Of a stretch of DNA of 64,000 bases, positions 20,651 to 50,433 are shown one piece after another. The notes under the pieces are model-generated. The model was given only the letters and a program-made list of their open reading frames with translations. It was not told where the DNA came from and searched no databases. The stretch is from Albugo candida (lineage: Eukaryota). The translations under genes were made by a program, and so were the position numbers. The DNA lies in NCBI GenBank assembly GCA_040437565.1, contig JBDOQK010000002.1:868001-932000 (forward strand). Reading direction: 5' to 3'. Each line of letters begins with the position of its first letter. The first letter of the stretch is position 1.

Positions 20651-22831
20651 CTACTTCTTGCACTTTTTGTGCTTTTCGAATAGGCTATTCAATAAAGCTA
20701 GAAATGTTGCGACCAACGTGATCATAGCTACCATCACAGCAATGGGTAAAGAGGGACCAAAAGTCTGCGTCAGAGTTGATGAATTCATAGCAGGGTAAGT
20801 TGCTGTTGTACAACGCGGGCCACCCCAATATTTGCTTGTACAGACACAACGCCGACGTGTGCACGTGCCTGTTCTGACCGGATGACTATTTTGTAGCTTG
20901 GCTGTACAATCATTTGTATCTCGGCAGGATGCACCTCCCTGTACTTGAACCAGTTTGTTGTCATAGTCTTCATACTCTTCGATATGACTTTCGATCCACT
21001 CATGTGTTGGGTGCGTAGGAGGATCACATCCCACGGCCATGGTTGACTGATTTGATAAATCTTGGTACAATCGAATATAATCTATCTTCAGATACATTGG
21101 AAAGCCATCGCAGATTCTGTTCACCTTTTCATCAGACCCATTGCCACGACAGGGACGGCCAACGTTCGGAGGGGTCGCTCCCCAGCTCCCGGACACAGCT
21201 ACATTCAGAATCAAATACATTGGCTCTTCAGGCATGATTTTTTTTGGATTGCTTTGATCCGAATCCTGCGGTACGTTTAAAACGGACGATGCCGGGATTT
21301 CAAACAGAGGAAGATTTTCAAGCATCCATCGTACGTACCCGTTCGGACCCATCACCCATTCGACCTGATAAGTCATAAAGGAAGTATAACCACCTACGTG
21401 AATTGGCCAATTTGCTGATAGCGCGTCCATCTGATAATTGAATGAGGGCATCGAGTTTGTTGGAGCAGTTGTTGGTAATCGTGGATTCAGACAGTTTGCG
21501 TCTTGATTATCAGGATCACACAAGTGGGTTCCATCATATGCATTAATGGCTGAAAAGCACGTGCCTTGGGAATTTATTCCCCAGTGACCTCGGTGGACGT
21601 CCCCATCAATAAATCCCAGATCAGATTGGATGTCATTCGACGCGGGGCATGTCGTCACAGAACAGTTGTTCTCGGTGATAGAATGAGACAGGGACTTCAA
21701 AATGGATCTCAGATCTTGCTTGAGCTTTTGATCTCTTGCGCAAAAATTGTTAGAAGAATATCTCAATCCTTCATACCAGGATTTATGCTTCCTTTGCGCA
21801 TAAATTTGGGATGGAATATTGGGCTGGTTTGCTCCAGGCGTGACACATGTTGCGGAGTATTTGCAAGACGTGTCCCCACCGACTTCCAGTTTTGGGTCAG
21901 GTTCAATTCTGCGATAATGCTTTGGCATTCCTGGTGCTACTTGGATGGAAGAAGACACAATACTTCCGCCTCCTTCAATAAGATCTATCTCAGGTGCTCC
22001 TCGCCCTTGATTGGGATGCAGACCGAATCCTGGATTCGGATCACACGCACTGATACGTTGATTACTACTATTGAATACTTTTTCGTTGCAATCGTTGTAG
22101 GAAAATGGCCACATTCTTTGTGTTGACGCACTAAAGATAGCCCGACCTAGATTCCCCATCATCCAGATACCAGGCCATGCAGGATAGAATTCCAATTCTT
22201 TCACTGGTGCCGTAGGACCTCGAGCCAAGTCCGGATTCCGGGACTTTTCGTTCATAGATGCTGGCAGTTGAGCTTTGACCTCAAGCATTCCACCCTGGAA
22301 GCAAAATTTGTTCCACGTTTGCAGCATCGCCGATCGATAAAACTATTGAAGACATTTAAGATCAGACATCCAGCTGTACACAACAGTAATGACTCATACA
22401 AAGGTTATATTCGTGAAGGATGGAGGATGCAGATATTGATTGAATATCGTGACATTTTGTACATCTTCTATCACTTTGATTTCGAGGAAGCATACATCAT
22501 TTTCACAGTTGACTTGTGTCATGTTGTGAGAATACACCTCAAGAGCGCCGTTTACCCCGTCAGGTTTTTCAAGCGAAGTCCAAAGGTGATCATATCCCGC
22601 ATCAAACCGTCTCTTCTCTCCGCTGATGTTATCATTGAACTCATCACTCATCAATAGCTCCCAAAATTGACCTCTCGAAGATACGTATGAATGTTTTTCC
22701 ATCGGAGTCGCCACATCGACCCATGTACCGATTCCCGAGACCGTCTCCAAGTTATTTGTCGATATAGCATCTGCAATAAATGCATACAATATAAAACAAG
22801 ACCTCAGGTACTGCCACAACTGAGCGAACAT
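20651..22831 (-). CDS. Beta-glucan synthesis-associated SKN1/KRE6 family protein (GH16-like)
   Basis: Signal peptide, WELLMSDEFN, MLQTWNKFCFQGG, WPGIWMMGNLGRA, GRGAPEIDLIEG, PEEPMYLILN, FPMYLKIDYIRLYQ, GCDPPTHPT, then a Cys-rich segment and a C-terminal TM helix. One intron near 22345-22398. Confidence 0.92.
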
Positions 22832-23557
22832 TTTTTGTTATGTGAGCTTCATCGATACATCATGCAGTTTGCCGCGTTTGAGATGTAATTTCGATGCGTG
22901 ACATTGGTTCCCTCTCTCATACTCCTTACTTCAGCTAAGATGAATCGATGTCACTGTTTATGCGACGGTAACTCAGTCTCCCAACATATAAGAAATTGCA
23001 TGGTTTTTCAAGGCACGGCGAATTTCGCATGACATGAATGATATCCCAGATCAGTCTGAAGTGCTCATGACATCGACCTGAATAGGCTCCCTGCTTTGAT
23101 CAGATATGGCCCCTCGCTTTACCAGATATTTATACAAGTGATTGCTCCTCACATATTATGTTGAATGCTACAAACCATGAAGCCTTCCCATAAAGAGCTG
23201 CTATCCATCTCAGATGAACTATTGTTTTCTACTGCTTCCAGATTTTGTTAGTCATAAACACTACTTGCGGCAATTTCAGATGATGTCGACGACTTTACTC
23301 GATATGTAATCGCTTTTACGTTTATTGTTTGCATGTAGTTCAGTTTGCACGACAGTAGTATTTCTGAGATGGACCCACTTGTGTGGGAGCTTGTGTGCTA
23401 GCAGACTGCACAAAAGTGCCACAGATATCATAGCTAGTAGCGGAGAAAATGAAGGATATCTTACATGGTCGTCTAATGAGCCGTAAACCGTCACAAATAC
23501 AACCCGGTATCTTGGAAAGATACGTCGGCACCAAAAAGCGTGTATTATCGTGCCAAA

Positions 23558-26500
23558 ATGAGATTCTTAAAAGCTCTATTACCGTGTGTTTTTGTGGTTC
23601 ATAATATGCGCGATGCAAAAGAACAGGTATATCATACGTGAATTGGAATCACTTGTTTGTCAAAGTATTTAAAAAACTAGATGCGGTCTTCACAGACTGT
23701 GAATGAAACAGCAATCGAAATACTACTGAACCCATTGGATATTGGGGATGAGGGAGAAACTCTCTATTCGCAGATCGATCATTTCTCTGAGCTAATGGTA
23801 ATATCACAAAGGCTTAACAGCGTGATATTCGCAAGTCGTGTACTGACTCGAATCTTTGCTTTGTATGCCAGATATCAAGCTCATGTGGCTTCATTCATAT
23901 CACTGAAAAGAAGGCGTTGCCTAGTTCAATGATCTTCGAATGCAATTGCTTTATGGGAGGATGTCGACAGATAATTGCACTCACGATAAAAAATGAAACA
24001 AAAGAAATCCTTCGATCAATTTGGTATGATGGAAGGTATTGTAACTCGGATTTAATCACAGTTTCCAAGAAGGAAGGGAGATATATAGCCCCTGAAAAAG
24101 CACCTTTCAGTGATACAATCTGTCGAGATGTTGGTTCAAATCTGAATGAAAATGACACTACACTTCACGTACGAAGGATTGAATTTCCGCACAAACAGAA
24201 TTCCGTAGTAATTTCATTCAAAAGTGAAAAGCTTTCTTTGGTTGCCAATACATGCTCCCCGTTACCAGAAATAACACTAAGTATCTTGGAGTGCCCCACA
24301 TGCTCGTCGGATGCTAATTTTCGAAACGAAATTTCTGTGACTCTCACGTTATCGGTCCTCTCGGGAAACCTTCAGCTCAGTTTCCGAACTGCAACATTGC
24401 ACAGCATCTATGTAAAGCAAGCAAATAAAGCAATTCTGGATGCAGGGTCGAAGGCATTATTCATTTTGGACGACATGACATCCAATACATTCTCATTACG
24501 TGGTCAAATCGATGATATGAACGAATTTCTGCAGGAAAATACAATACAATACTGCCATCGGAGCCAAAAGTTCAAAAATGGTGTAGCTCCACTTGCGGAT
24601 ACAATCATAGTAGCGTGTCAGATCAAGGATTCGCAAGGAGCTGATGAGAAACCCTCTACGGTCAACAGATCCATTTCTGTTCAAATTTTGGATCCGATAA
24701 CTCTTCTTCCAAAAGACTGCGTTTCGAAAAACTGTAAGACGACACTGTTTCAGATCCAGGCACAGCGTGTTGTTCCTTTTCCAATATCGTACGAGTCAGC
24801 AATGATAGCGCCTGACAACAATAAAATTGTTACGCTGGCGATTGCTTTATTTGGGTCGAACAAGACCTGGATAAAAGTAAACTCCACGCTTCCAAATATC
24901 ATTAACGAATCATCAAATCCCCTCTCTACATTCGATGCACAAAGAGGGGTAGCAGTGCGCCATCGATACGTGAACGAGACTAGTTTAGGGAATATGCTAG
25001 ATCCAAAAATGATGGGTAAGGTAACAGAACAGTTTTATGAAAAAATTCTGCTTCGAGGGACGGAAAAAGAGATGGCCGATGCGCTGGAATCGATTGAAAT
25101 TTTTTCCATTCAGATGTGCAAGCCTTCCGTGGAAACACTGGCCATCCGCGAGTTCGTGGAGGGTTCGACCACGAGTCAGGTCCTTTTAGAGGAAAACATA
25201 ATTGTGCTTCCTTGGTTTTATTTTTCAAACGAAGCAGATATGAACCCAAGCGCAATTATCGCATACGCGCTTGACACAAACGTAACGAAGTCGATCAAGG
25301 AGCTTTATGGACCAAGATTCGCCGATGTGATTCATCAAAATGTCCCTGAAAACTGTGATATCGATCTTGAGATTCATATCTCTTGCACTTCTGGATATTT
25401 AATGCACCACTCGGTTCCTACATCTGTCCCGATTGAAGTAGTCACCCTTACGGCCTTCTCATCCTCCAACATCACTGTAGTTGGTAAATATCCTGACGTT
25501 CTGAACGTTCTTTCATCAATTATGTTTGTTGCAAAGAACATTGTAAACGATCCACTCGCGACTCACAGAATCCAATCGTTCAAACTACAGACCCGAAGAA
25601 GAACATTTGATTCAGATACGCACATTTTAAGAGTGAAAAGTAATAATGAAAGCATCTCAGGTCAGTACATTCTTGGCTTGCATGTACCTAACGGTCTTAT
25701 GCGAGAACGGAGCGCGCATAAAAACAACGATGGTGATTGTGTATCAGGTGCAATTTACTTGTCCGATCCGCTCACTACTGTGAGACAGAAAATTCTCAAT
25801 ATGATTTGCGTCTTACGTCCCTCTATCATTACCAATGCCACTTTGCTTGAAAAAGTGGTCGCTGTGCAAGTCTACTCAAATGCTACAACAGACCCAGGTC
25901 ATCTCGACATTTTTGATGGATATCTAAATATTCAGTACCATGAGAAAACCACAAAGGTATCGTTGGCTACCTCCAATGAGGACATGGAACGGGCAATGGA
26001 AGACTTCTTTAATGCAACAGTGAAAATCAGCAAGCAAGGTCAAAGGAATGAGAGCTTTTTCATCTGGGTTATAACATTCTCGACTGGAAGTGATAAAATC
26101 GATGTGAACATGATCACCGCGTCCACCTCCAAAGCAGTTTTTCAGGTGAAGTGCACCACACTCAAGAGTGAAGTTGAACAAACCCAAGCCAACTTGTATT
26201 CCATAACATCCGTGCAGTTCCTTCAAGTGCGGTACTTGCCAGACGATGAAAATGATAACGCAACACTTTTGGCTCTCGAAATCACTTTCGAGAACTCAGA
26301 TGATGTATCCGTGTTTCCAGTTCTCAAGATCGTTTCACATTCGCTAACTCCTAACGCTTCAAGCATCTCAATTGAACATACTATGATTGGGGCAACACGT
26401 AAAATCATGGATCATCATGCAACTCTCCCAACTATTTGCTTAAAAGCGATGGGATACGACGCTTTCACTATGGTGCCACTTGGTGATAAAAGCGATCGTG

Positions 26501-29500
26501 TACGAGAAATCATTCAGAAATATCTGCTTGATTCAATTGGAGATGTCTATGTCGTAGATCTATACTACCGGCATTACTACCCTGATGACATAAGAGAAAT
26601 GCAGGAATGGCAAATACGTCTTGCAGCGCATTCTTCACTCAAGCTGTCGACATGTAATGTAGCATCTGTGGACCATTCAGCATGGTCGATTAACCTATTC
26701 AGTGACGATCAGTCGAGTCTCATCACAAGCAGCAACTCTGCTGACGTGAGATTCAAAGTATTTCCTCGTATCGAATTTGCACAAGAGAATACTTTCATGG
26801 ATTCCATAGCGCGAATATTCATCCTGCAAACTGAACACTCTATGCAATGCTCAATGTACTCTGTAAAATCTGCCGAAGAAATACACCAGGTCCAAATAGG
26901 TGATAGAATACGCATAAAAGATCTTCAAATCAAGCGGACTCAAACAATTTGTACAGATCCCTGTCAGCTCTTCTGGATACATATAAATGCCACTGAAGGA
27001 AAAATTGCCTTCAATGATTCCCGGGATAATCAGCCACAGCATTCATTGAACGTAACGTGGAACTTGGACGTACTGAGCAAGAAACTAGCGGATGGCTTCG
27101 ATTACTATTCAACCGGTCGGGCTGGTTACCATATTGTCGCTGTCACAATAAGCTGTGCGGGGCAGCACACGACACAAATGGACGCTTTGATCACGACTGA
27201 GATCCCCGTGAGAATAATTTCTCCCAAAACAGATGATTCGTTGACCATACATGTCCCTTTCGCAAGCCTCGATTTGAACTTTGATCAAAAAGCTCACATC
27301 TTTGGAATACAACTTCAAAATCCAGATGGATCGTATTTTTCTGTCAACGTCGACATATGGGTGAAAGTTGGTGAATTGAGCTTGAGATCTTTATCGGCTT
27401 ATGCTTCCCTCGAGACAGAATGGTCTCCAATATGGAATTTGCGTGGTAGCATCGCTCAGATCAACAAAATGCTGACCAATATTCAATACCGGACTGTGAT
27501 GTGTAAGGCCCCGATCAACAAGGATCACTTCTATATTGCAGCTGAAATCATGCCTCAAATATCGACTTTTACAGCAACAGCGTCGACTAACCTATCAGTT
27601 ACATTCAATCGAGTCGAAAGGCGCATCTCATTGCACAATGTCTTCATAGAAAATTGCTTAGAGGTCTTCTTGGGTAGATCATGTATCAGAAAAGAGACAG
27701 GTTATATTCTGGGGCAACTAAATCAACCGATCCCACTGACCAACCTTAGCGTCAAAGCGTACTTTAATACAAACATCCAGACAAAGAATGTGAGTGCAGC
27801 AGATCAGCACGTTGAAATCAGGCTTGCAGCTCGAGAAGGAAAAATAGCATGCGATGAGCTTTTTCCGTACAATGATATGAAATCAAATAATGTTCTTATT
27901 GAGAAGCATATTGATGCTCTTAATCAACTCATACAAAATTGTCAGTATCTGCCACCCCATGTACCACTCGGCTTGAATGAAACAGATGAAATAAAAATAC
28001 TAGGGCAGCAAATTACTATGAACGAAAGTGTGAATCAAGTGGAAATGTCGATTTTAGTGCTCCCTGATAGCATGAACGATATTTTGATAGTCGAGTGGCC
28101 ACAAAGTATAAAGGACGGATACTCCCTTGAATGTACTGTCGGCCAAGATGTTTTGATTCCTTCTTTAGTTGTTCGGGTTTATCCTCCATCTGAACGACCA
28201 CAGCGTCTATACACAGTTGAGATCGCAATCGACGAAGGGAATATAACGAGCACGAGCTCGACCAGGATCACACACGAGAATTTACTGATTGTAAGTTCGA
28301 CCATGAATATAGATGGGCCGAGTACACTACGGCTCACTCATAGTTTATCGGACTTGAATCAAATTCTTGGCAAATTATGGTTTTCAGCACCGATTGCTCC
28401 TAAACGATCATATTCACATCTCAAATATAAAGTGTGGCCCATCAATTATCCTCAGAATGCGGTTCATGAGTACCTCCTCGTCAATCTCACGTGGAAAAAC
28501 TTTGAAAGTGTTGTAGATAAGGATGATGTATACTTGACATCAACCGATCAAATATTTCGAGCAAGTCCCGGAGAAAATGTATCAATATGTGGGGGATTTA
28601 ACATTCCCAAAAGTATCAACATTTCCTCGAATAGAGAAGTTTTTGCTCTAACTTTAAAGGCGCATCATGGTTTACTGACCTCATATCGCGAACATGCTGC
28701 AAATCCTTCGGTTAAATTACATGTAACAGCACCACTTCATGAAATTGATGCACATCTGCTCAATTTACATTATAAATCACTTCCAGGTTTCACTGGAATC
28801 GACCAAGTAAGAGCTTCAATCAAAAACTATAACCATGAGGATTTGAACTACAATACAGATCAGTCTGATGAACTTTGGATTGCGATCAAAGTGGCAACGC
28901 CACCTGTAAAAGTTCAAGTTGACTTCATTTCTCCAACTCAAACAGCATTTCCGGAGTGGCTGGAAAGATCATCTACATTGCTCGGACCATCTTTACACTT
29001 ATCCACTATGATTCCTGTCGAGTCATTACGCAAGCACCACATCCTTCATGTATATTTGCAAGCTAATTTTGCAACATTTCAACCAAAGTCCAGCGATCTC
29101 GGTCCAGATTACGATGGTATACATGTCAATACCTCTCGGCTGCCTCTTCTACTCCAACTTACTGGCACTTATTCACGGCTGAAATCAGCACTTCGCGATC
29201 CCCAAGTAATGATGGTACCAAGGACAAATTTCTGGACTCATGAAGAATGGACAACGTTCGAAGTTAAAGCATGCACTCGTTTTGAAGATGATCAGAACGA
29301 ATCAGGCACAAAAGTTTGTAGTGGAATAAAAACCAAGATGAGACTCATCACCAGCGCTCTTGTCAAATTAGTGCGGAAAGATACCAGCAATGCGTTACAT
29401 ATGTTGACTGATGCATCTTCTCCTTTGTCGAAACTCACTTATCTCGATATTGTGCGGAGATTTTCCGAATCAAGTCAAATAATCCTGATACTGGAGGTTA

Positions 29501-32500
29501 TACTATCCTCAGGGAGATTTACATGGACGGAGAAGTTCCAGTGTAGCAATGCATCTGACTTACTGCAAAGAAGCGAGTATGAATTAGGTAGTCTTGACCG
29601 GGATGCAAGAAAAGCTGTCAGGGTTAGGAGCACAATACGATGTCTGAATGAATTTATGGCTGCGACGCATGTAAAATGTGAAAATTATCAGACGGCCGTA
29701 CCTGTATCGATCAATATAAAAGTGAAGCAATTGGCGTGGAGTGCCATCGATGTATCGAGCGAGCATTTCGTGTTACAATTTGATAAAGGAGGCGGGGAAC
29801 ATGGCCTGAAAATCACACCTAAAATAACAGACGAAGCAATCGCGATCACATACGCTGATGTAATATCTCTTCCATCAATTATCAACATTCCCGTTCCAGA
29901 ACTTGAAGAAGATGTAGTAATGAATAACGATGCCCCCGAATCTTTGTTCAGATTAACACTACTATCACCATTACATATGAGGTTTGACGAGAAGAAACTG
30001 GTTCAAGGGCTCTCGCATGAATTTGTGAAGCAAAACTCTACGAACCTCACTTTTATGGGATCTTTGGAACGTTTGCATCAAATACTACATTATCTCTATC
30101 TAATTCCTTCACAATCAGACTTGAAAGGCGCTGTGCAAAGTCCAACACCCATACTGCAAAGCTATGTGAATATTTCTTTGTATAGAATTGAAGATCATTA
30201 CAGCTATGCGAGCTCTGTGCTGTCAAATCAGCATTTTGCAGTTGCATATCAGGTGCTGGAACGTCGGCTTTCTTGGATGCTGAATGATGTGGAACAGCTG
30301 GACCGTCATCAAATGATAAGGAGTAATGGCGGAGTGGTGTCATTCAGCAACATCAAGCTACGTGGTAAGGATAATGCACCAGATTTACAATTAAATCTTA
30401 TCGTCGAATGGCTCAATGATTCACTAAAAGTCAAAAGAGCGCAAGAAACAGCGACCGATAAAGAGCATGAAAGCAGGGAAAACTCGACAGAAAAACTGTT
30501 CTATAAAAGCAATAGACTTGTGCTACGTGCAAACAGAAGGACTTTTGATGATTTATTGCATTCCGTACTTCTGTATTTTGACTGCGAGAATTTCGATCAG
30601 CACGAAATATACGATTTACGGCTCACAGCGAAATTACTGGTCGGGAATTTTAGCGAAAATGATCAAGACCATGCAACACTTGGTCTAAGTGTCCTGCCTG
30701 ACGCATGTTTTCATGGTGAATCCGACCCGATGAAAGCGCAAACGCCTAAGATGCACCTGATGGATATGCAAATAACAATTAAGGAGGATGAGGACTTCAA
30801 TGATTTCGGCCGAGTAATTCGACTTCACTTTGACGACTCAAATCTCCTTTCACAAGATTATATCAGCTCTACCGCTTTCCAACTCTCATTGAGTGTCACA
30901 AGGGGATTACTATCGCTACCGGATACAATCTGCTGCATTGAGCTAAGGACTTCTCATATCTCCAGTGAAATTGTCACAATAGGAGCTTTATCCGGTCTTC
31001 GTCGCGTCCTCCAGAACCTGAGATATAGCCCGCACAAGGATTATAACGGTGAAGACAAGCTTGATCTTTCACTTAGTTTGGGCCAATATGTATCGCGCAT
31101 CCTGCAAACCGAGCAGCTGCTTATCTTGATAGAAGCTGAAAACGATTCCCCGACTATCGATTTTAGACGGACTTTCAACTCAAATGAAGTTAACAAATCA
31201 CATATATTTGGAATCTATATTAATGACCCCGATTTGTTTCACGATAAATCAATTAGGCAGACCTCTATGGCCATAGTATCGCTCGTATTGTCTTCTGGAT
31301 CACTCAGTTTTCAATCTGAGATTTGGATGGAAAATGTCATTCTTATGTCGAAATCGTGCTCGCCTGGCTCCCACGACCGATTTTTGTCGATCACGATCCA
31401 AGGCTCACTATATGCATTAAATCATTTGCTGGAACGAATGTACTATTTTCCTGCTTTGTCTAACCACCAAACATGTGTTGGTGAGAAGACAAAACTCAAC
31501 ATAACAGTCAATGATTTGGGTCATGGCTCGCTACAGCTTAAACCCAAGATCACGACTTCAGTGCAATCCATCAGTCATAACTGCATGCCGATGACACCGA
31601 TGATAGTGGTCGAAAAGAACAATCGACTGATATATGACGATTATAGCGATAAAGTATTGATGGACGGGAATCTCTCAATTGTAGGGACTCTTGACGATCA
31701 AATTCATCCGAGCGGGGAGATAGAGAATAATTCACGCTGTCAGTTGGAGATAAAATGTTTTTATCTAATTGAGGCAGAAGTCCAAGAATTACAAATCAAA
31801 GAAGCACGACATTACTATTCATTCGTTCTCCAGAGTTATATTTTGGATCGCGTTACGTTTCGTAAAACATTCCAGCTTCAAACGAATTTATCACTTCCAG
31901 GAAGGCCGATTTTCATCAAGCAAGTACGAATTTATGTGGATGCAGTTGCCATGCGATCGGACGAAGTACCCGGACAATTTGGAAACGGTCATGGACTTGG
32001 TGAATCTGTCGAATCTGCGATCCAAATGCTTTACGAAGACTGCGGGATGGAATTTGGCTTAATTATCACAAAACACTCCAAATTTCATCCCGAACGACTC
32101 AACAAGTGGACCATAGTTTTGACAGAAACAACAGATCCCATTACATCTATGCCCTTGCCATTTAGCATTCTTCGAGTTGATGAATCCGTTAAGGTAACTC
32201 TTCGCGTTGAACAACATTTGTCGGCGATGACTAGCGAATTCCGGCTCAAGCTCGGCGAGGAAATCACCCATCCTATTCCGACTGATGCAACTTCTCTACA
32301 ATTACAGGAGGCACTAGAGGATATGGAAACGGTTCAAATGGTGCACGTTAGTCCTAGAGCTGGAAATCTGCACTGGGGAATCACATTTTTCAACTACTGG
32401 AACTCTTTTCCAGTACTTGAAGGAATTACGACGGACAAGAACGGACAATCAAACATTTTCCCCGTTCCTACATTCGTAGGAGCAGGAGAGGAGACGTTGC

Positions 32501-35500
32501 TCAACTCTGGAGCAACTATTAAAACCGCACGCATCAAAAAAGGTACAGGCCACGGCACCATTTTTGAAGTCGTGGTAGGTGCACACCCGAGGTCGATAAT
32601 TTACAGGCTGGCGACATTTGCGAATTCAGTTCTTTCCGGATCTTTCCAAATTGGTTTATTTGATTCAAATGGGCAAGAATTAGCTCGAACGTCCGAAATT
32701 TATCATAATGCAGAGGCGAGCATACCGGTGGAAAGCGACCTTAGTAAAAGTGGTGCAATTAAACACAGATCTCTTGAACTAGAGCTGTTGACAGCGATCG
32801 GGAATCTTCCGAGAATCCTTGGCCTTCATAATATTGACATTGAGGCCCGCAAGGTCGTAACAGATCACCACCTTCGTCTTAGTGATTGGACAATTACTTT
32901 CACCAAATGCAGTCATGATTTTCCAGTTTTCAAAGTTGTCAACACAGCCAACCTCAGGGGTGATGATGCTAGAGCGCAATTGCACATACTTCAGGTAACG
33001 GAGAATTTAGGTGGTACATTTTCGGTTACCATTGATACGACATCTCTGAACTCACCACATACATTTAGTTGGAACGTCGAGGCATCGATCCTCGAGGAGG
33101 CCCTGAATTATGAACAGCTGGATGACTCTACAGCGAAAGGTACACCCAAATACCATGTACGTCGGCGCCGACATGGTCAAAATGGATATGCTTATGGTAT
33201 CTTGTTGCTTTCACAAACAATACCACTTCGACTTAATTCAGCATCTCGCATACCGATTGTCGATGGAACAAATCTCACGGGTCTCGGTGCATTTGCTCAA
33301 ATCAATATTATAGATAAAACTTTCCAGAATGACGAGCGTGAACTGAGCAATGAATATGCTTTGTCTTGGACAAAGATGCCTCAGTCGGATGATGAATTTC
33401 CAGAATTTCAACATGGAGCGGTCAATTATCGTATGGATGCAACATCAATGAAATTGAAGGCAAAATCACCTTGGGACTTGATTCAGGCATTACCGAGAGA
33501 TCTTGAGCTACAAATTCCGAAATATGTGAGCGGCGGTCAAGTCCAATTATCATTTACATTGTCAGTGAATTTTCGACATGAGGAGCACGTGTCAACACAG
33601 AAAACATCCATTGTCGACCTTCCAACATCGCTTAAAGCTGATGCTTTTGTTATCCGTAAAGAATTCGCACAAGACGATTCGCTGCATTTCGCGATGTCCG
33701 ATGATAACTTCACGCTTGCTGGGCTGTATGTTGATGCACAATCACGGTGGTTGGAACATGTTTGGGTTAAACTTTGTGTCTCGGCGCAGAAGGATTGTAG
33801 CAAGAATGCACACTGGGTAAATGGCACAACCGAAATGATCAACGTACATCTACGACAAAAGGAATTTCCAACCACCTTTCTGTTCGAGCAACACAACGGT
33901 GGAGCGGTCAATCTGATACTGTACTATGAAAATGACATAATCACAACACTACATGTACAGCTAAAACGAAGATCTCTTGATGTCAATGATATCACAGTGC
34001 CATATCCAACGATACGTATACAAAATGACTCTAAGAATCAAAATCTGTACAAGAACGATTCGTCGAGAATACTGCGAGCAGCTTTTGACGTAGAAACAAC
34101 GTTATTTCAATATCTGTCAATAGATGATGCAGGATGCTCTGTGATTCTAGATCACAAGCGGTATGTGACTTCAGATCCAAGTCCGACTGAAGAGGATGCG
34201 TCTTGTAATCTGAAATTCCGTCTTCGATCAATATATGGAACAATCAAAATAACGGAAAGCATAAGGGATACGTCAAAGTTTGCAAAGATAAGTGAGCAAG
34301 AAGTATTGATATGTGCCTCCAAATCTGTGATTAATTTTATATTGGCCAACCTGTTGACATATCAATGCTGCCGATACTTTGAATACCATCAGTATGATCT
34401 CATCTACGTCACAGTAAGCCGTCAAAATAACACTGTAACAAAACTCGTTCCTTTGCAGGAGAGCAGCAGTGTTCTCGAAGTCGAAATCAGTCCAATTCCT
34501 TTTGTTCCAAAAGTACACCTCACTTCGACAGAATTATCACGGATCTTATACAGAGTGAATAAGACGACTACATACCAGCTTGCTGAGCCTAGTGTTACAT
34601 TTCATTCGGGGAGGAAAACCACTTCAGATTATATTGATTCGATTAAAAATGCTGCCCTGCAGCTATACAAATTTGAGCTGGATCAATCAAGCACAACAGA
34701 GTATCGTGAAGCTCGCATACTTTATGAGTTTTTCTTTCCGAAAATATCATCGGCTACAAGCGATTTCGTCATGCACTTTTCTGAGCTGAACTCTTTGGTA
34801 ATCTTTACAGGATATGATGATCAACATGGCAGTGAGCTCTGGATAACCGATGGGAATCCTAATAACACAAAGCTTTTTATCGATCTACTCCCTGGTTCAC
34901 TAAGCTCCAATCCCACTTATCTGACCGCGATAAATGGAAAAGTATACTTTGCTGCAGAGGGCTTGGATCTATCGTGGACACTGGATCTTGATTCATGCAA
35001 CGGGCTTCGATCTGTACAAGCTTCTGGTGAAGAGATATTGTACATTATTGCAAGAGATCCTGTCTGGAAACCTGAGAAAAGGTATGAGTGCCCTGCTGGG
35101 TACCGGTGGATCACTTCACGTGAACACTTTGAAAAAATTATTCTCACATCTAGAAAAAGATCGCTTGAGGAAAGTTATTCGAGCATCTTCTGGAATTATT
35201 GTGATTGGGATGGGTACAAGTTTGGTGGTGCGTATCGCCGGTATTTTCGTTTTTCTGATTCCTACATTAATGGAGTATATCAGCATGCGGGGCGTACGAT
35301 CACCTCACCACTCGGGCACGATGATTCCTCCTTCGACTTTGCTGGAATAATTTGTGCCAAATTGAGTTCCGGAATCGATAGCACGCTTTCAGCACTAGGT
35401 AGAGAGCTATGGGTGACGGACGGGAGTTTGAGAGGTACAAAACGGGTGCGGGACATACAATCAGGAAGCATTGGATCCAATCCTAAATATTTGAGCTTAT

Positions 35501-38500
35501 TTTCGTCTATAATCGTCTTCCAAGCCACTACCGACGAATTTGGTACCGAGCTATTCAAAACAGACGGGACTGAGGCAGGCACAGTCGTGGTTGCTGATAT
35601 TTGGGTAGGACCAAGAAGCTCTAACCCTTCTTATATGACGGAATGGACAACAGGCGATGGTAGACTATATTTTGCTGCCACAAGCGATTATGGGCGCGAA
35701 TTATGGGTTTCCGGTGTGCGCGCTAACTTCCACAACTATTCTTCGAGTGGCTCAAAAACTTTCGCAGGTGAGACCTCGACTTATATGCTTCGAGACATAT
35801 TTCAAGGAAAGAACTCATCAAATCCAAGATACTTGGTCGCTGCTACTACCAAGGCTGGTATTTCAGGAGTTTTTTTCTCAGCAGACGACGGGGTACATGG
35901 TCGAGAGCTCTGGGTTACAGATGGCACTCTATCTGGTACAAAAATGATTGTAGATTTGGCTAGTAGACGGTCTAAAGGCTCCAATCCAGCATACCTGACA
36001 CTTTTTCGAGGAGAAATATACTTCCAAGCTACTGTAGATGAAGCCATTGGGGTAGAGCTATACAAAACCGATGGAACTTCTTCGAATACTCGGCTCGTTG
36101 TAAATACTGCACCCGGATCCGCAGGAAGTTCCCCACATTGTCTTTCCAATATCCAAGCAACAACACGTTTTGGGGATACAGAAGAACGTCTCTATTTTGT
36201 TGCGAATGATGAAAATAATAATGAAAGGATATGGAGCTATGATGGCACGAACTCTAAACCGTCTGGCCGGACATTGCCCGGCACTTTACAAATTACTGAC
36301 GATCTTGATGGTTTCGGTTGCAAGCTATATGTCTATGGGAATTCCATTCTATCAGCAGTCAAACAAAAGGATATCGGAAATTCTATTGAAATCGACTTTG
36401 ACTTTCCATTTGATTGTACTGTTCGTCTAATCGTCGACAAAGGAAATCTTTTGGTTCCTGCGTACGGTCGACGACAACCGAGTAAATCAGATAAAATGGA
36501 CGTCAAAAATGCACAGGAACTCAGTATTTTTCTCAAATCGATATTGTATGTGCCTCCGCAAGACTGGGCGCAAAGTTATGATGGATCAGCTTTAACTACT
36601 AACTGGGTGATTGAAATCATTCTCAATGGCGTTAATCACACAGTACAGGTCCCGCTGATAATACCACCTACCAAATTTATACCTCGATTGCTAACAACTC
36701 TGACTGGAGAAACGATTCTAACGAAAGAAGACACAATCAGGAAAATTCCTAGTATCTCTGTTCAAATGTGTAATGCAATTCTTGATGATCCCGACATGTA
36801 CGACTGCATTCCATCTGATGCGATAAACGCCTTTAACAACATTTTGCTCGAGCTAAATGCCTCGTTGCAGCATGGCACCTTCCACGTTGGATACTCAGGC
36901 TGTCTCGTGTCTTTCCGGGGTTACCAGCCCGACTATGTTGACATATACACAAGCCTTGATTCTGGTAGACCTTGGAAAACTGTCACGATGGTCGGCTCCT
37001 TGGTTTGCTTAAACCAGATAATGTCCGATCAGATGGATTTTTATGGAGATGGCGATTACACGGGAAAGGATACTCTAAATATAAGTATCCGATCGGCAGC
37101 TCCACGTGTGTCGGATCGTGAGGAACGCGTACTAATTAGAAATATTGAACAATGGACAGACCAAAAGTCTTTCACGATTCTCATCGAGCCGGTCAATGAC
37201 GCACCGTATTTGCTAGCTTCTCAGCATTACGAATGCGACGAAGATGTCCCTTTTCTTTTTCCAGACTTGAAAGTTGTGGATCCGGATGGGCTATGGACAC
37301 CAATTCAACTTGACATCGCAGCAGAGTACGGGAGTTTTGTCATCACCGTACAGCAGCCAAATGTAAAAGTTCTTTCTCAAGCTGAGTGGGCAGACCTCCG
37401 TATGATTGGCCCTGTTGATGATATCAACTTAGCACTGAGTAAAATGGCGTACATCTCGAAACCAAATTGGAATAGTCTTCAGCTAGCGACAAATGAGAAT
37501 TTTTTCAGTCTGGCCACCACCTTTGATGATGTTAGCTTTGAATTACATGATTTCAAGAAGTTTAATCATACAACAATTCGGAACGTGAAGATATTCGTAA
37601 ACCCCGTGCAAGATGCAGTCTATATCTTCGCTCCAGATATTAAGCACAGAGAAACGAGGAGCAGTCATTTTTATGAATTAGATCAAGTAGAGGATTTGAC
37701 CACAGCGATGAGAAATGTTGAGTTCAAGATCGCGGATACCACAAATATGATTACTCTAAAAGTGGAATTGAACGTGGAAAAAGGAGTTTTGTTCATGCCA
37801 GATTTTTCATTGAACGAAGTATCATTCAATGACGGTACGGAAAATAATGAACGCATTATTCACTTTGAAGGTTCGCCGCAGGCTGTGAATACAGCGATTC
37901 AAACACTTGCATACAGACCCGATACGACCCTGCTGGAATATAAAGATGTGCTCATTTTGAAAGTCCAAAGCTACGATAGACTATCGATGCAGTTCTCGCC
38001 AAATTCGTACCTGCAGGTACCTTTAGTGACGAGAAAACAGAACTTTGTTCCACAATGGGAGCTATCAAAACCCGACTTTATACTTGGTAGCTTACTCGTC
38101 TGGCACTTGGGAGAAAGCAAATCAGTTCTCATCCGAAATGCGTCATTTACGGAAAAGAATGATATAGGAGTAGACCGTTCGTCTTCCCGTGAAATGCAGC
38201 TTGCACTGAAAGCTGAGAATGGCTACTTTCATTTGTCTCGATTACATGACGTCGAGCCAAGTACAAAGATTCTGGTTCGTCGACAAAATGAGAACAATGA
38301 ATGGCGATTCTTGATGATAGCAGCTCCTTTGAATGTTTTAAACTATATCTTGGGTGAGATTTTGTTCTACTTGGACCAAAATCGCGATGTGTCACGTTCT
38401 ATGGATGTCATGCTCAGACTGACTATCAACGAAGAGGGTCTGGATGGCTCAAAAGTGAGTAGTACGCAGCTTCACTTCATTCCTAGTAATAGGACGAAGG

Positions 38501-41500
38501 AATCAGCATTATCTATCCGTGCTATCGAAGACATTATAGAGGTTGAGGAAGATCACGTTTTACCTTTCAATCGTACAAGTCATATTTTACTTTCTTTTGA
38601 GGATGAAGGATGTTGCACGCAATGGCCAATTCAGCTCGAGATAAGTTGTGAGCATGGAGAATTTTTGGTAGCTCATTCGCCAGGTGTATCGATGTCTCGG
38701 AAGAATGACCACACAATATACATGGAAGGGTATGTGGAATATATGAAAACCGTTTTGCGCAATGCAGTCTATGTCCCTCATAAGGATTGGTACGGTGCAG
38801 ATAGAATCTATTTCGCTATTCTTGATGGAAAACAAGGGTCCGAATCAAATGCGAGTATCATGGTCTCGGTTCTTCCTATTTGTGATGAGCCTCGATTTTC
38901 TCATACCGAGGCCTCACGTACAGAATACGTGATGAAAGAAGACACTGAAATCGCACTACACTTGCCACTTATCGTTGATCCGGATCCAAAAGAATCGATG
39001 ACTCGCGAGATTTCGCTAAATATCGTCGTAACTGAGAAAGCTGGAGGCATTATGGCGACCCATTTATCCGACTTTTTTGTTAATAATTCGTTGGAGAAGA
39101 CCTCTAAGGAGGCGTGGCTGAAAGATATCAGTATAAGAGGAAATGCACTTGAACTGAATGCGGTTCTCAATGGACTAATGTACCGCCCAAATCCAGACTC
39201 GTACAATAGTTTTCCTGGTGCTGGTCTGGTAAGACCGATGGATGAAATTCGATTCTCTCTGGAAGTAATAAACGATGATGGAAGTGAATGTGACGACACT
39301 GACGACTCCAAACACCTCACTGTATTTGTTCAAGTGGATGCCGTCAGAGATCTTCCTGTATTGCTTTCTGAAGAATATGCGCGGCTTCCATTTCACCTCG
39401 GTACAAAAATGATGAAAAATGAATTGGACGACAGAGAGTTTTGTAGATTTCTTGCATCAATTCCAAGCACAGCAAGTGCCATTGAGGACGAATCTCGGAA
39501 CTTGAACCCTTTCACGATATATGATGCCGACATCTCTGATCAGGAGTCGAATAGAATTCTGCTCAATATTACTGGATTCGGAGTTAGAGTATATCGAGAT
39601 TCATTAAAGCACAATGATAATTGTAGTATGGCTTCTATTACTGCTGTTCCTCAAACAAGTGATTTTGATCTCTGGATCGCTATGGTTGGACCGCAAAATG
39701 CATTGAATTGTATGATCGCTTCTCAGTTGATGTTTGTCAGTGGTCCAGACTACCATGGAATCTCTTACATTATCGTACAGATATCTGACTTGAGCTTTTC
39801 GGGAAGCGATCAAGAAGTAAGCAGTACATATGTCCTCCGAGTGAATATTGAGGCAGTTGATGACATCCCAAAGGTACAATTTCCGTCATATGGAACAGAA
39901 CTAGCACATTTTGTCGTTGAATTCGGCTCAGAGAAATTCTTAACAGGTGCTCCATACCCCGAACATTTGTCAAAGACCTGCCGAGGAATGGCGGATTCCG
40001 GCCTTTGTGCAAGCAGTGCTGCTTCCAAAGCTCCAATCTCACCATCACATGTCAAATGGTCCCTGTTGCGTGTTCGTCCTCTGTCTGCCAATAGCACCGA
40101 TCGTATTTCGCCTGTTACGTCTTTCGTTAGCTCCGAATTCTCTCAATGTCAATTTTCGATCGCAGCTCTTGGACTTGAAATCATTTTTGGTGGCTTTGAT
40201 TTGTTACATGGCGCTGAATTATGGCAGTCGAGTGGGAAGTCTCGAGAAACAAGCATGCTGAAAAATCTTGCACCCGGAAACCAAAGCTCCAGTCCATCGT
40301 TCTTGACGCACTATGCAGAACGCAATTTGGTGCTTTTTGCTGCTGAAGGATTCGACAAATCTTGGATGTTGAAAGACGAGGCTCGTGATAATTGTGGTGG
40401 TATGCGTCGTAGCACAATCAATCGTCGAATAGCTTATGTGGTTGCTGATGAAGAACGAATGAAAAATGATCAGGTATGTCAGAGAGGCTTCCTCCTGCAT
40501 TTATAGCTCAACAAAATTTGTGCATAGGAATACGATTGTCCTCCAGGGTATACTTGGATGTCTACTGAGCAAGCTCGTTTCCATCTGAGTAGCGCTGGAC
40601 AGGCCGCATATGGTCAGCCCGAGCATTTGACCTATTATGATCAGTGCGGATGGAATGGATATGAGTGGAAAGGAATACTACGTCGGCAGTTTTTATTTTC
40701 AGACTCAAAGGTACCTTTGATTAAAATTTCTCACACTAGCTCCTATAATCACTCGTCATTATAGTTTACTGGTGCCTATAAAGACGCTAGAAGTCCGGAT
40801 GCATCATTACCCGATACTGGGAATCTTGTAAATCTTTTTGCTGGTCTTGTGTGCTGGGAAACCGCTGACCGTACTGGGAGCACAGGAATAGAGTTATGGG
40901 CAACTGATGGGTCAGAAGAAGGGACTCGGCGCGTCCGTGACATCAATCCTGGACCTCCCAGTTCATCACCGTCAGATCTATACGAGTTCGAGGGCAGAAT
41001 GTTTTTCCAAGCAACGACAGCTTCTTCTGGAACTGAGCTTTGGACCACTCAGGGCACTTTAGAATCCACATTCTTGCTGGTGGATTTAGTGCCTGGAACA
41101 CGCAGTTCGTACCCAAGATTTCTGACTGGAATGCATTCCAAGCTGTTCTTCTCCGCCACCACACTTGCAACAGGTAGGGAACCGTGGAGCACAATGAGCA
41201 TCATCAATTCCAGGATGGGGCAAGGAGATCACAATGAGATGGGAGCAGGAATCCTGTACGATATCTGTGCTGGTCCAGGATCATCAAACCCGCAAAATTT
41301 TGTGGTTCTAAAACAGAATCAGCTGCTTTTTCAGGCTGATGATTGCGTTCATGGTCCCGAACTATGGATAAGTGACGGTACAGCAATGGGGACCCACCTC
41401 TTGGCTGATATATTTCCTGGGTCCGAGGGATCTCATCCTTCATATCTGACTACTTTTGGTGAAAAAAATATCTATTTTCAAGCAAACGATGGTGTACATG

Positions 41501-42648
41501 GCTTCGAGCTCTGGGTGACCGATGGGACCCCTGAGGGTACGCGTCTGTTGCATGATATCGTATCCGGGTATACTGGTAGCTATCCAAGTTTGCTCGTCCC
41601 TTACAAATCATCCGAGGGGTCCTTGTTGATCTTTACAACTAGAGGAGCCGACCAAACACAACAGCTCTGGCAGACGGATGGTTCCCAATCTGGCACATCT
41701 CGAGTATGGCAAGATTCACAACAGCTTCTTCCCCTACATATTTCAATGCCAGATTTCGATTCAACTCAAGTCATAACGCTGAATCATGAAAGCGAGTTGT
41801 ATCTTTTTGGTCGAGAGACACAAGAATCTAGCGTAGTGCTTGGGGAAGTGCAGAACACGCGATCGTATCGACCATCGATTTTTGACGAGTCAAGATCTTT
41901 GACGTTTTGGGATGTTGACAGCTGCCAGAACAGGAGTATGGAGTATCGTCTGCGCTTGAATTGCTCTGAAGGGGAATTGATATTATCAAAAAATTCGGAA
42001 TGCATATTACCTCGTATTATAAAAGGAGTTTCAACATCGACAGCAGTAATAGGAAGTCACATTATGCTACAAGGTGTTCTTGACTCGCTCAATTGTGCCA
42101 CCGCACGAATCAGATACCGCACCGCATCGAATACTGAAGCTGTCGTTCTAATATCAGCTACGCTGGTAAAGCTAGACGGTCAACGTGAAGGCCCTCTAGC
42201 AGAAGATCACATGTACGCCCACGTTCTCGAATCGAACTCACCACCTCAAGTCAGCGCAAAAGATAGTTACGAGGTCAGATTGGGTGAGTGGAATTCGCTA
42301 AATGAAATTAGAATCAGAGATAAGGACAGTGGGGAGCGCAGTATATACGTTAAAGCATCAATTCGATATGGTCGACTTTGGTTTCATCCTCAGTATCTGC
42401 ACAACCGGCGTACATCACAGATTACAATTTTAAATATAGTTGAATGGGATCAATCGAAGCAGTCTATTGAACTGAGTGGCTCAATTGATAATGTCAATGA
42501 ATTCCTTGCTACCATGCGATATGGATGCATTGTGCGAGAAGGGTGCGCTACAATTCTGGAAGACATGCTCGAAGTTGTGGTGAACGACAATAGACTAGGT
42601 GGACGCCAAACTGCACTCAAAAATATCTCATTAATACAGATCAAATAA
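23558..42648 (+). CDS. Giant (~6284 aa) putative secreted adhesin-like protein with cadherin/Ig-like repeats and two ELWxxDGT-repeat propellers
   Basis: Reconstructed exons 23558-23626, 23681-23797, 23872-40473, 40528-40710 and 40765-42648, with all four introns phase-0 GT-AG and in frame. N-terminus MRFLKALLPCVFVV; 14 ELWxxDGT-type motifs; recurrent G..LN..L..L.Y.P..Y.G.D and (V/E)ND(A/S)P motifs. The two 5' exons are less certain than the rest. Confidence 0.85.
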
Positions 42649-42776: not shown

Positions 42777-43330
<554 letters not shown>

Positions 43331-44340: not shown

Positions 44341-45757
44341 TCATGAGAGCAAATGCCACAGCTTTCCAATAAAGTGCATGCACGCAGGATTCTTCATTAC
44401 CCATAAAATCAGCTACATTTAGCTTACACTCAGTAAGGCATATGCTTGAGCATTGGGGCATGCACTTCGTACCTTGGCTCGCTGTAAAGGACTAAGAGAA
44501 GATTCTAAACGATTTATTTCATACCTCATAATATTGTTTCGGTCAGTGATTTCTCTTTTAAGATTTTCTAGCACATTCATCGTTCTTCTCAATTCTCCAC
44601 ACATAACGCTCGCAGAAGCACTGCAAATCATCAACAACTATGAGTGAAGTCCACTGTGAACATGTCGAAGATCCTTACCTTTGCTTCACAAATTGCATCT
44701 CTTGATCACAATTCACATTCAATTCCTCGATCAGAATGTGAGATATATTCAATTCTCGCTCTTTAATACTTTGGTGTACTTCTTCATTATGGAGTGCCCA
44801 TATGGTCATTTTCGTGACTTGTATTGGTTCGAGTAAGAGTTCGAGCCCATCAATATGATGGATAAATGTCGTGCACCAATGCCTGCCAAATTCAGAATAT
44901 AGGTCACGAAAAGCATGTATTTTGGCTTCGAGCTGTTCGTCGGAGGCACCACATGTTACCAAATGCTCGAGTTCGTCGCAAATTTTAAGTTTATTCTTTC
45001 TTTGTCTTCTATCATATTCTTTGTTCGCGTCAAGCTGAGATCGTAAACGAGCGTTTTCGAGTACTAATTGAGCATGATGCTTTTGGAATAGTCGACGTCG
45101 ATCGTGTCTTTCGCGACGACGTAAATATGATGACGTCCTTGACTTCTGCCGCAATGGTGCGACTTCTAGGTCGATTCTCACTTTCCACCCAGGCGGTTTC
45201 GTACAAATCAGTGCATCTCTTTCCTGCTTCAATCTGCCTTTTTCGCGTTGGTTAGAGTCACATTGCTGAAATTTATATTTGTCCATTCCTCTATCTTCTT
45301 CGTTAGGTCCGAACTGCTCTTGTTGCCTATCCCCCAGAATTAAGCAGGACAATTCGGTTTCTTCGTGCTCAACTCTAAAAGTGTCACTCTCGAACGATGC
45401 CAAACTACCAGTGATGACTCGATTGTTCTCGAGTAACATACCTTGCTTCATTTGTTCGGTTACCGCGGTACAAGAAGAGTATTCCAATTGATTATTTCCT
45501 TTGTGTACGTCACCTTCTACGTTGAAAGATGATAAAATGTCATCCTCCAGAAACAAGGAATTTGTATAACAACCATTTCCAAGGAAGTCGATTGTGTCTA
45601 TCATATCGTCGACTGAGTTCGGCAATTTGTTCTGCTTGCTTACGTCTTCCTTACTCGATACGAATGTATTGCTTATATTGCAATCGACCGTCTTCAGTTC
45701 TCTAATCGGTCGGGATTGCGATGTACACGACATAACATCGCGGTCATGAGTATCCAT
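44341..45757 (-). CDS. bZIP-like transcription factor with C-terminal helical domain, 3 exons
   Basis: Basic stretch KSRTSSYLRRRERHDRRR followed by a zipper-like QLVLENARLRSQLD. The C-terminal helical region includes LELLLEPIQVTKMTIW and spliced LSPLQRAK|LILWVMKNPACMHFIGKLW*. Confidence 0.6.
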
Positions 45758-46287
45758 TGTGCAAAAAATCTGGTAAAATACTTGCGTACCCAGCTTCTGC
45801 AAATCAGCAAATCTTCCTGTATATCGCCTTGAGTAACGCCACGCAACAAGTCTCGTTTCAATGGTCAATGTGTATGTGGCAGTGTTTGCTCGATAATAGC
45901 ACCACTTCTAAAATCTATTCGATTCTGTATTTTTTTATCGAGAAATACTCCAAGTGCGTTACACTATGTCAATTACTTGATATTGTGAGAAAACAGAAGG
46001 CTCTCTCCTCCGCATTCATACCATCAAACATTCGGTCATTTCTCTGGCCATTTCTTCCAATTATTGTTTACACCACAAAGCTTCGGAGAATGACATAGCC
46101 GACGTGGCACCTTCCCATTCCTTGATCGTCAACCAATCGGATCTTTCGCATCCTCTGGCAACATTTCGCAAAGTTGAAACGGCTTCCGGCTAGTCGGTCA
46201 ATAATCACATTTGTAGGGCAATACTTGCATTTTATCAAGCTGCTCTTTCGCCTAAAATAAGTCTATCTGGCACCACTTGCTTCAAAC

Positions 46288-47101
46288 ATGACTCGAGGTT
46301 CCAGTATTTCCTCCTTTTTCAAGAAGCTAAGTGTCAAAGGCTCGAGAGGGAAAATCAGTCGATCATCTCAGCAAAAAGATGAACAGATAGAATCGGCTGG
46401 ATCTGGCGCTGAACAAATAGCCGCGCCACCAGCTCCGGTTGATATTGCGAAAGACACAAAGATTACGGAAGCATCCACTGAAGCGATTCAGCAAGGAGCT
46501 GAGTTAGAAAATGATTGTAAATGTTCATATAGCAGACATCGAAATGATTTTTACACCCATTCTTGTAGCGGACGGTGAAGACACGTCGGGTCCAGCAGAG
46601 CCTGTAATGATCAAAGAAATGGATGGAGGTGACCGACCTCCAGTATCGAAAGTCACAATTGAAGATTTCGATCTTCTCAAAGTCCTTGGAAAGGGTAGCT
46701 TCGGAAAAGTTATGATGGTCCGAAAAAAAGACACGAAGAAGATCTATGCAATGAAAACTTTACGGAAAGCCGCTTTGGTGAAACGCAATCAGGTCCAACC
46801 CAATAAGTCATTTTTGCTATTTCAATTTAGCTGGCTCCTTGTTGTAGATACTTCACACGAAAACCGAGAGGAGTATACTGCAGACAATAAAGTATCCTTT
46901 TTTGACAAGTCTGACATATGCTTTTCAGGTAGGGATACTTTATCCACTTGTAATTTTGCATGGATGAACCAATCTTTTTTTTTCTTAGACACCTGATAAA
47001 TTGTATCTGGTAATGGATTATTGTGGTGGTGGAGAGCTGTTTTTCTGGCTGAAGAAAGATCGTCGTTTCTCGCTTGTACGCTTACCGTTGTAATTGCACT
47101 T
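46288..47101 (+). other. Truncated duplicate of the AGC kinase 5' half (probable assembly overlap)
   Basis: Appears identical to 48751-49564 (offset 2463) and ends at the N-gap. Confidence 0.75.
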
Positions 47102-47201: not shown

Positions 47202-48220
47202 TGAGATATATTCAATTCTCGCTCTTTAATACTTTGGTGTACTTCTTCATTATGGAGTGCCCATATGGTCATTTTCGTGACTTGTATTGGTTCGAGTAAG
47301 AGTTCGAGCCCATCAATATGATGGATAAATGTCGTGCACCAATGCCTGCCAAATTCAGAATATAGGTCACGAAAAGCATGTATTTTGGCTTCGAGCTGTT
47401 CGTCGGAGGCACCACATGTTACCAAATGCTCGAGTTCGTCGCAAATTTTAAGTTTATTCTTTCTTTGTCTTCTATCATATTCTTTGTTCGCGTCAAGCTG
47501 AGATCGTAAACGAGCGTTTTCGAGTACTAATTGAGCATGATGCTTTTGGAATAGTCGACGTCGATCGTGTCTTTCGCGACGACGTAAATATGATGACGTC
47601 CTTGACTTCTGCCGCAATGGTGCGACTTCTAGGTCGATTCTCACTTTCCACCCAGGCGGTTTCGTACAAATCAGTGCATCTCTTTCCTGCTTCAATCTGC
47701 CTTTTTCGCGTTGGTTAGAGTCACATTGCTGAAATTTATATTTGTCCATTCCTCTATCTTCTTCGTTAGGTCCGAACTGCTCTTGTTGCCTATCCCCCAG
47801 AATTAAGCAGGACAATTCGGTTTCTTCGTGCTCAACTCTAAAAGTGTCACTCTCGAACGATGCCAAACTACCAGTGATGACTCGATTGTTCTCGAGTAAC
47901 ATACCTTGCTTCATTTGTTCGGTTACCGCGGTACAAGAAGAGTATTCCAATTGATTATTTCCTTTGTGTACGTCACCTTCTACGTTGAAAGATGATAAAA
48001 TGTCATCCTCCAGAAACAAGGAATTTGTATAACAACCATTTCCAAGGAAGTCGATTGTGTCTATCATATCGTCGACTGAGTTCGGCAATTTGTTCTGCTT
48101 GCTTACGTCTTCCTTACTCGATACGAATGTATTGCTTATATTGCAATCGACCGTCTTCAGTTCTCTAATCGGTCGGGATTGCGATGTACACGACATAACA
48201 TCGCGGTCATGAGTATCCAT
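47202..48220 (-). other. Truncated duplicate of the bZIP-like gene (probable assembly overlap)
   Basis: Appears identical to 44739-45757 (offset 2463) and begins at the N-gap. Confidence 0.75.

Positions 48221-48750: not shown

Positions 48751-50433
<1,683 letters not shown>

Follow-up and report, generated by a model that had tools for sequence, protein, structure and literature searches.

Giant repetitive adhesins are already known as a kind. In the integrin alpha chain, a seven-bladed propeller with an inserted I domain stands on beta-sandwich legs, and the Nonagonal cadherins reportedly cross the membrane nine times. True cadherins are defined by LDRE and DxND calcium motifs in the accessible part of PMC2926784. 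The available portion of PMC5771568 describes giant FN3 proteins of Saprolegnia as cyst-enriched candidate adhesion proteins, while those of PMC7409359 and PMC5061743 report FN3 and cadherin in zoospore aggregates and a cadherin-like bacterial lectin, respectively. Here, we analyzed a 64,000-nucleotide stretch of the Albugo candida genome (assembly GCA_040437565.1, contig JBDOQK010000002.1, positions 868,001–932,000; hereafter, the window), the plus strand of which carries a gene for a giant protein with ELWxxDGT repeats. Orthologues of this protein are present in databases as hypothetical proteins.

We failed to find a paper naming ELWxxDGT or TIGR04534, the family of these repeats, or describing a function of the repeat, most subscription journals being outside the coverage of the search. 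Nothing was found under six orthologue identifiers, nor on Albugo, transfer, and propeller. The identifier SPRG_09820 was not found in the supplements of PMC5768655 (2 files), PMC11302233 (7 files), PMC5771568 (1 file), PMC3681718 (12 of 26 files), and PMC4316629 (4 of 5 files, one of them in part).

By analogy, the giant protein most plausibly works like a giant repetitive adhesin. The reading that we favor, with moderate confidence, is that of a giant glycoprotein, secreted without an anchor, that would serve as a branched adhesin or as a scaffold of the coat, its heads binding while the stalk spaces them. The insert module described below is new, and the proposed nested layout is unusual. 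The inserts with their probable lectin fold, the stack of EVQ domains, and the nesting of these elements in split cadherin-like domains were missed in the initial annotation of this DNA.

Gene Structure and Splicing

The gene, represented by open reading frames (ORFs) at 23818–40506 and 40765–42648, is real, spliced, and single-copy in the Albugo genome: all 10 TIGR04534 matches of the 36.6-Mb genome fall inside it. Exon 1 (23558–23626, amino acids (aa) 1–23) contains the start codon and a short hydrophobic signal-peptide-like N-terminus. Exon 2 (23681–23797) encodes aa 24–62, and exon 3 (23872–40473, aa 63–5596) is a 16.6-kb stop-free segment evident from both the ORF and the gene model. Exon 4 (40528–40710) encodes aa 5597–5657, and exon 5 (40765–42648) encodes aa 5658–6284 and the stop codon. 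The GT-AG introns 1 (23627–23680), 3 (40474–40527), and 4 (40711–40764) are 54 nucleotides long, and intron 2 (23798–23871) is 74 nucleotides long. All four are of phase 0; three contain in-frame stops, and the length of the remaining one is not a multiple of three. The in-frame union of the five exons yields exactly 6,284 aa and a stop, in agreement with the initial annotation, which had joined two ORFs and three small exons into one protein of about this length.

That annotation had also proposed checking the junctions against transcripts. All four introns were absent, at the predicted bases, from contigs of two runs of one study (X1 and X2), which are probably RNA; this status is the guess of the tool, and no run listed is recorded as RNA. 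None of the contigs spans the whole gene. No skipping of the introns was seen in run X5, where the stretch was in one piece, or in the fragmentary run X4.

Propeller Heads

The two clusters of seven ELWxxDGT-like motifs noted previously were confirmed in position (34834–36226 and 40216–41662). They scored 311.8 and 268 bits with TIGR04534 against a curated cut-off of 65, and on this profile match the giant protein is a member of the family. A model of the first cluster, calculated for 34750–36360 with 15 sequences, had a predicted local distance difference test score (pLDDT) of 69 and a predicted template modelling score (pTM) of 0.65 and consisted of seven strand groups, one for each motif. 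The best rows of a Foldseek search with this model were propeller-containing chains. In a wide structure search, the best Z was 20.1 with a root-mean-square deviation (rmsd) of 3.7 over 301 aligned residues; many propeller families were tied, so the fold gives no function. A PDB sequence search with the same region returned nothing significant.

The model strongly indicates that the first cluster is a seven-bladed propeller (propeller 1, 34750–36303). The second (propeller 2, 40147–41817, spanning introns 3 and 4) is inferred to be a propeller from its homology to propeller 1. Thus, of the two beta-propellers predicted in the initial annotation, the first was modelled directly and the second follows from homology. 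Profiles indicate that both lie within split cadherin-like domains.

Insert Module

Each propeller contains, between motifs 1 and 2, a segment of about 130 aa with conserved Cys, Trp, and Gly. According to the alignment and the model, insert 1 (34975–35364, ~130 aa, four conserved Cys) lies in blade 2, where it separates strand B from strand C. Insert 2 (40363–40863) is coded across exons 3, 4, and 5, its core being encoded by exon 4. No Pfam family and no PDB sequence match were found for the insert. Folded alone, it gave a pLDDT of 87 and a pTM of 0.84; a C-type-lectin fold, suspected ahead of the folding, is probable. The best match in the wide structure search was weak (Z 4.7, rmsd 3.5, 90 aligned residues). 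All 50 structure rows listed belong to what we take to be C-type-lectin-fold proteins (Link modules, C-type lectin domains, invasin, Lcl, and FGE-type domains). Leads from the Atlas were Lcl_C (47% of members) and InvE_AD (36%), both below 0.9. Two Cys positions, an invariant one ahead of the helix and another in the last strand, are, as judged from the alignment only, compatible with the canonical C-type-lectin disulfide.

A profile of the insert matched 458 representatives at E ≤ 0.001. Among the 150 listed were small PEP-CTERM/VPLPA-CTERM proteins, Ig-domain proteins, and Myxococcales tandem arrays. The insert is a passenger domain of bacterial PEP-CTERM/VPLPA-CTERM surface proteins and, by its sequence contexts, a mobile module often but not always displayed on surfaces. 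Members of this uncatalogued family were also observed at L013–L016, L025–L028, P0121, P0122, and P0124; the insert forms tandem arrays in Myxococcales proteins, tips cysteine-rich proteins of myxobacteria, and in PEP-CTERM proteins is the only passenger.

Cadherin-Like Units and Probable Nesting

A profile of a ~138-aa unit, built from the family, detected 23 cadherin-like units at ≥5 bits in the giant protein, 17 of them at ≥12 bits versus none in each of five shuffles. The cadherin-like repeats of the initial annotation were recovered with the family-built profile, while the library models stayed below their cut-offs (PF17803, 21 bits against 25.1; NF012211, 31.8 bits against 90). Some homologues exceeded these cut-offs: P0167 and P0043 with NF012211 (127.5 and 92.2 bits, respectively) and P0135 with PF17803 (35.7 bits). 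With regard to calcium binding between the domains, acidic linker motifs were present but eroded in Albugo, with 3 of the ND.P type versus 17 in P0106. A PDB sequence search with one cadherin-like unit gave nothing significant.

The N-terminal stalk (24310–31572, aa 209–2629) comprises 11 detectable diverged units and a lone EVQ domain (25921–26088). It is followed by a split cadherin-like domain (31591–33723) around the EVQ stack (~31777–33465); its C-half gave a weak profile match, and its N-half, recognized by eye in this protein, was picked up in homologues. The stalk between the heads (36388–39858) consists of the C-half of a split unit and then seven cadherin-like units. Another C-half and one final whole unit (41896–42645) close the protein, with no transmembrane helix after them. 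Affiliation with true (EC) cadherins was rejected: LDRE/LDYE was absent from all eight proteins inspected, DxNDN occurred once in the giant protein, and PF00028 was not found. Affiliation with Nonagonal cadherins was rejected by the lack of a transmembrane-strength segment in the giant protein.

The nesting was analyzed in 24 giant homologues with 34 propellers, picked for length and naming; these proteins are related, and the cases are not independent. The next cadherin-like match after the propeller began at profile position ≥23 in all 34 cases, compared with 10 of 180 other matches and 1 of 28 second matches after the propeller. Before the propeller, the last match covered no more than the N-half in 18 of 34 cases (baseline, 6 of 195). 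EVQ stacks were flanked by complementary cadherin-like halves in the best-conserved homologues, e.g., positions 2–57 and 55–136 in P0216. In the giant protein itself, C-halves were found by profile, two of them weakly. A backbone in the form of a chain of at least 23 bacterial-type cadherin-like domains, some interrupted by long inserts, is strongly indicated by these profile matches, and a rod with side branches appears to be the simplest reading of the split domains.

The EVQ domain was found 2–4 times by profile in the giant protein and recurs in giants of the FN3 and PA14 kinds encoded by this genome. Its profile matched the structural phage protein 9d93 of the PDB ("Tail tip cage, gp23") with an E-value of 1.2e-14. 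Giant ORFs of 2,469–5,575 aa elsewhere in the genome (L010–L012; G000:C5, C51) contain many EVQ domains alongside domains of the FN3, PA14, and filamin types. Within the EVQ region, a segment of 135 bp (33069–33203) has two 93% identical copies (L007/L008; G000:C73), which are located on a different contig and in no long ORF.

The likeness to a structural phage protein also suits an alternative in which copies of the giant protein would polymerise, via their branches, as the structural subunits of an appendage on the surface (hairs or spines of cysts, scales, or flagellar hairs), with the binding of outside ligands being secondary. In the same direction point the single copy and old age of the gene and, in the accessible part of PMC5771568, the proposal of FN3 giants (5,297–9,440 aa) as components of hooked hairs. 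We regard this alternative as unlikely: the heads are the most conserved part of the protein, the occurrence of the insert alone on bacterial surfaces suits a binding module, and contig depth, a poor measure, was low compared with the adjacent ubiquitin-S30 gene.

Probable Secretion and Absence of an Anchor

A hydrophobic 9-mer with a mean hydropathy of 2.86 is located at aa 6–14; visual inspection and hydropathy were the basis for calling the putative signal peptide. No transmembrane-strength segment was found: over the whole protein, no 19-residue window exceeded a mean hydropathy of 1.73. Hydrophobic N-termini and the lack of a C-terminal helix were common to the 10 homologues examined, in agreement with the initial annotation on both points. 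The protein contains 70 N-glycosylation sequons and 91 Cys. The RxLR motif that marks RxLR effectors was not found within the first 120 aa of eight proteins. The sequence indicates a protein that is probably secreted, without a membrane anchor.

These properties also bear on the possibility that the protein, once secreted, acts as a co-receptor or sensor: its heads would capture a cue and deliver it to a distinct receptor in the membrane. The combination of a propeller and an inserted domain does recall integrin alpha chains (Z 17.0, tied with many propellers). This role is highly unlikely, as the giant protein has no transmembrane or cytosolic part, no partner was identified, and a stalk of 6,000 aa would be superfluous for it.

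Distribution, Descent, and Origin

A search with propeller 1 among proteins of 3,049–9,702 aa gave 178 matches. Of the 120 listed, 18 also had the insert; the carriers named were Albugo, Pythium oligandrum, Nothophytophthora, Globisporangium, Thraustotheca, two Aphanomyces, two Saprolegnia, and Achlya. A separate search revealed further oomycete homologues in five Phytophthora species and P. insidiosum. The closest named relative was that of Albugo laibachii (75% over the first propeller). Downy mildews were not named in the length-limited searches; P. infestans and P. sojae were missing likewise, which makes this result uninformative on the loss of zoospores. The same modules and architecture were found in the pelagophyte Aureococcus anophagefferens and the brown alga Choristocarpus tenellus, so the protein is not an oddity of oomycetes. 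Architecture was the sole ground for treating most remaining giants as eukaryotic. Two heads are present in complete oomycete proteins, and one, near the C-terminus, in the proteins from outside oomycetes and in most remaining giants.

The propeller tree was built from the blades after the insert, with 48 rows from giants and 72 others, the latter from 82 usable of 102. Support is given as Shimodaira–Hasegawa-like approximate likelihood ratio (SH-aLRT) values. Oomycete head 1 (14 rows, 94) was sister (92) to head 2 (15 rows, 98), and Saprolegniales formed their own clade within each. On these trees, descent is vertical within oomycetes, and the head was duplicated in the oomycete stem, because the two heads form sister clades that each include a clade of Saprolegniales. 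In total, 43 of the 48 giant rows fell into one clade (83) and five outside it. A single origin of the giant rows was not rejected by the approximately unbiased (AU) test in a 51-row subset (p-AU 0.577), which is no proof of a single origin. In the insert tree, based on a quick search with 163 of 239 matches kept (76 short ones dropped, 11 near-duplicate records left out), all 77 propeller-context copies were inside one 84-row clade (94).

The propeller and the long cadherin-like unit occur in bacteria, as does the insert, which was detected in 8 of the 401 genomes from a single phylum. The bacterial insert was not found inside a propeller in 33 overlapping loci from 10 genomes, a sample too small to establish absence, and the other 102 ELWxxDGT giants listed contained neither the insert nor the EVQ domain. 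From these sequence comparisons, an origin in bacteria is plausible and, if there was one, would be ancient, predating the oomycete–ochrophyte split.

The bacterial type of the repeats might point to contamination by bacteria or to a gene recently transferred into Albugo. This alternative has a practically negligible probability. It is refuted by the spliced introns, by a GC content (~42% along the whole window) like that of the flanks, by the eukaryotic neighbours (KRE6/SKN1, GH3, and ubiquitin-S30 fusion genes), and by orthologues that follow the oomycete tree. The initial annotation had suggested horizontally acquired domains and had named eukaryote-wide propeller homologues with a vertical phylogeny as evidence to the contrary. 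The bacterial relatives of the propeller and of the cadherin-like unit agree with the former, a recent acquisition does not hold, and the vertical descent within oomycetes and the range beyond them go part of the way toward the latter.

Conservation and Points against the Adhesin Reading

Identity to three distant oomycetes was mostly 35–49% in the heads and mostly 18–28% in the stalk; to A. laibachii, it was 65–79% and 56–63%, respectively.

Several observations weigh against a secreted, branched adhesin or coat scaffold. The signal-peptide-like segment of the Albugo protein is short. N-halves were not found by profile in the giant protein itself, so nesting rests on the homologues. The lectin-fold match of the insert is weak, Foldseek with its model returned nothing at E 0.001, and the C-type-lectin fold takes in non-lectins too. 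The insert also terminates a RING/B-box protein, P0257, which looks cytosolic. Albugo copies form long branches in both the insert and propeller trees. Of 99 strain differences, the 40 listed comprise 34 non-synonymous and 6 synonymous ones, where 11 synonymous would be expected under neutrality (p 0.11), i.e., no purifying selection was seen within the species.

The long branches, the eroded repeat motifs, and the preponderance of non-synonymous differences are what relaxed selection in Albugo, with the ancestral function being lost, would produce. We consider such a loss distinctly unlikely, since a stop-free exon of 16.6 kb is maintained and correctly spliced, no stop codon was present among the 40 listed differences, and the heads are still more similar than the stalk to those of A. 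laibachii. The strain differences would suit relaxed and diversifying selection alike. Eleven of the 40 differences listed, 10 of them non-synonymous, cluster at 36641–37369, in the cadherin-like units right after propeller 1.

Proposed Organization and Role

In the adhesin or scaffold reading, the chain would exit a cadherin-like domain, form a side branch, and then re-enter and complete the domain. One side branch would be the EVQ stack, and two would be seven-bladed propellers; from blade 2 of each propeller, a module with the C-type-lectin fold would loop out, giving three nesting levels. At 4.5 nm per cadherin-like domain, the secreted rod would be about 100 nm long or more and may be located in an extracellular coat. 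For the conserved propeller-plus-lectin heads, the ligands may be glycans or proteins; the stalk, which evolves fast, would space the heads and may cross-link the matrix. Of the possible roles, we place first, by analogy, one at the spore, zoospore, or cyst stage, in adhesion or in the assembly of the coat. More tentatively, the protein may represent an undescribed class of single-chain branched surface scaffolds that stramenopiles inherited from a common ancestor of oomycetes and ochrophyte algae. In it, entire propeller heads topped by a new family of the C-type-lectin fold would be set into loops of cadherin-like domains, an integrin-like head arrived at independently from bacterial and phage parts and serving as a core spore adhesin.

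Spore adhesion and coat building in oomycetes are only partly known, and the gene is a single-copy pan-oomycete candidate for them; its two small foldable heads are open to expression and assay. The insert is an uncatalogued module of ~130 aa occurring both in eukaryotes and on bacterial surfaces. The ELWxxDGT repeat now has a fold model, and branching by insertion appears to reach a cadherin-like backbone and whole propellers.

Neighboring Genes and Window Features

A glucan-synthesis gene of the KRE6/SKN1 type is encoded on the minus strand at 20651–22837, head-to-head with the giant gene. A spliced minus-strand intron (23406–23464, CT..AC on the plus strand) was present in X1 and X2 a short distance upstream of the start codon, and one contig links it to the 5′ end of the giant gene. 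This suggests overlapping divergent transcripts with the KRE6/SKN1 gene or an antisense RNA. A spliced ubiquitin-ribosomal S30 fusion gene (42803–43330), with a far higher contig depth, begins about 150 bases past the stop codon. Segments 44739–47101 and 47202–49564 are a 100% identical 2,363-bp duplication on either side of a 100-N gap, probably an assembly artefact doubling two ORFs; smaller duplications were observed at other gaps.

Comparison with Known Systems

Bacterial ELWxxDGT proteins of TIGR04534, some of which have tandem-95/cadherin-like stalks (P0057 of Magnetococcales), share the same repeat, far over the cut-off. The bacterial giants P0057 and P0035 also share the same long cadherin-like unit, at up to 97–100 bits. 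In contrast to them, the Albugo gene is eukaryotic and spliced. The true cadherins of oomycetes and the Nonagonal cadherins are likewise giant extracellular stramenopile proteins of tandem beta-sandwiches, with a proposed adhesive role (PMC2926784 for the true cadherins); the giant protein differs from them in the bacterial type of its repeats and in having no membrane module. It is similar in size to the FN3 giants of Saprolegnia cysts (SPRG_05384 and SPRG_19863 as well as SPRG_03974, in the accessible part of PMC5771568) and shares the EVQ domain with the EVQ/FN3/IPT giants of its own genome, whereas its backbone is cadherin-like and bears propeller heads.

The insert resembles C-type-lectin-fold adhesion modules (Link of LYVE-1/CD44, invasin/InvE, and Lcl) at the level of the fold (Z ≤ 4.7) but differs from them in lacking a sequence match in Pfam or the PDB. 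Compared with the integrin alpha chain, the giant protein has another repeat, another insert fold, and another insertion loop, as well as no transmembrane helix and no beta partner; like that chain, however, it appears to combine a propeller with a looped-out domain, and with no homology claimed, we propose an analogy in the way the two may work.

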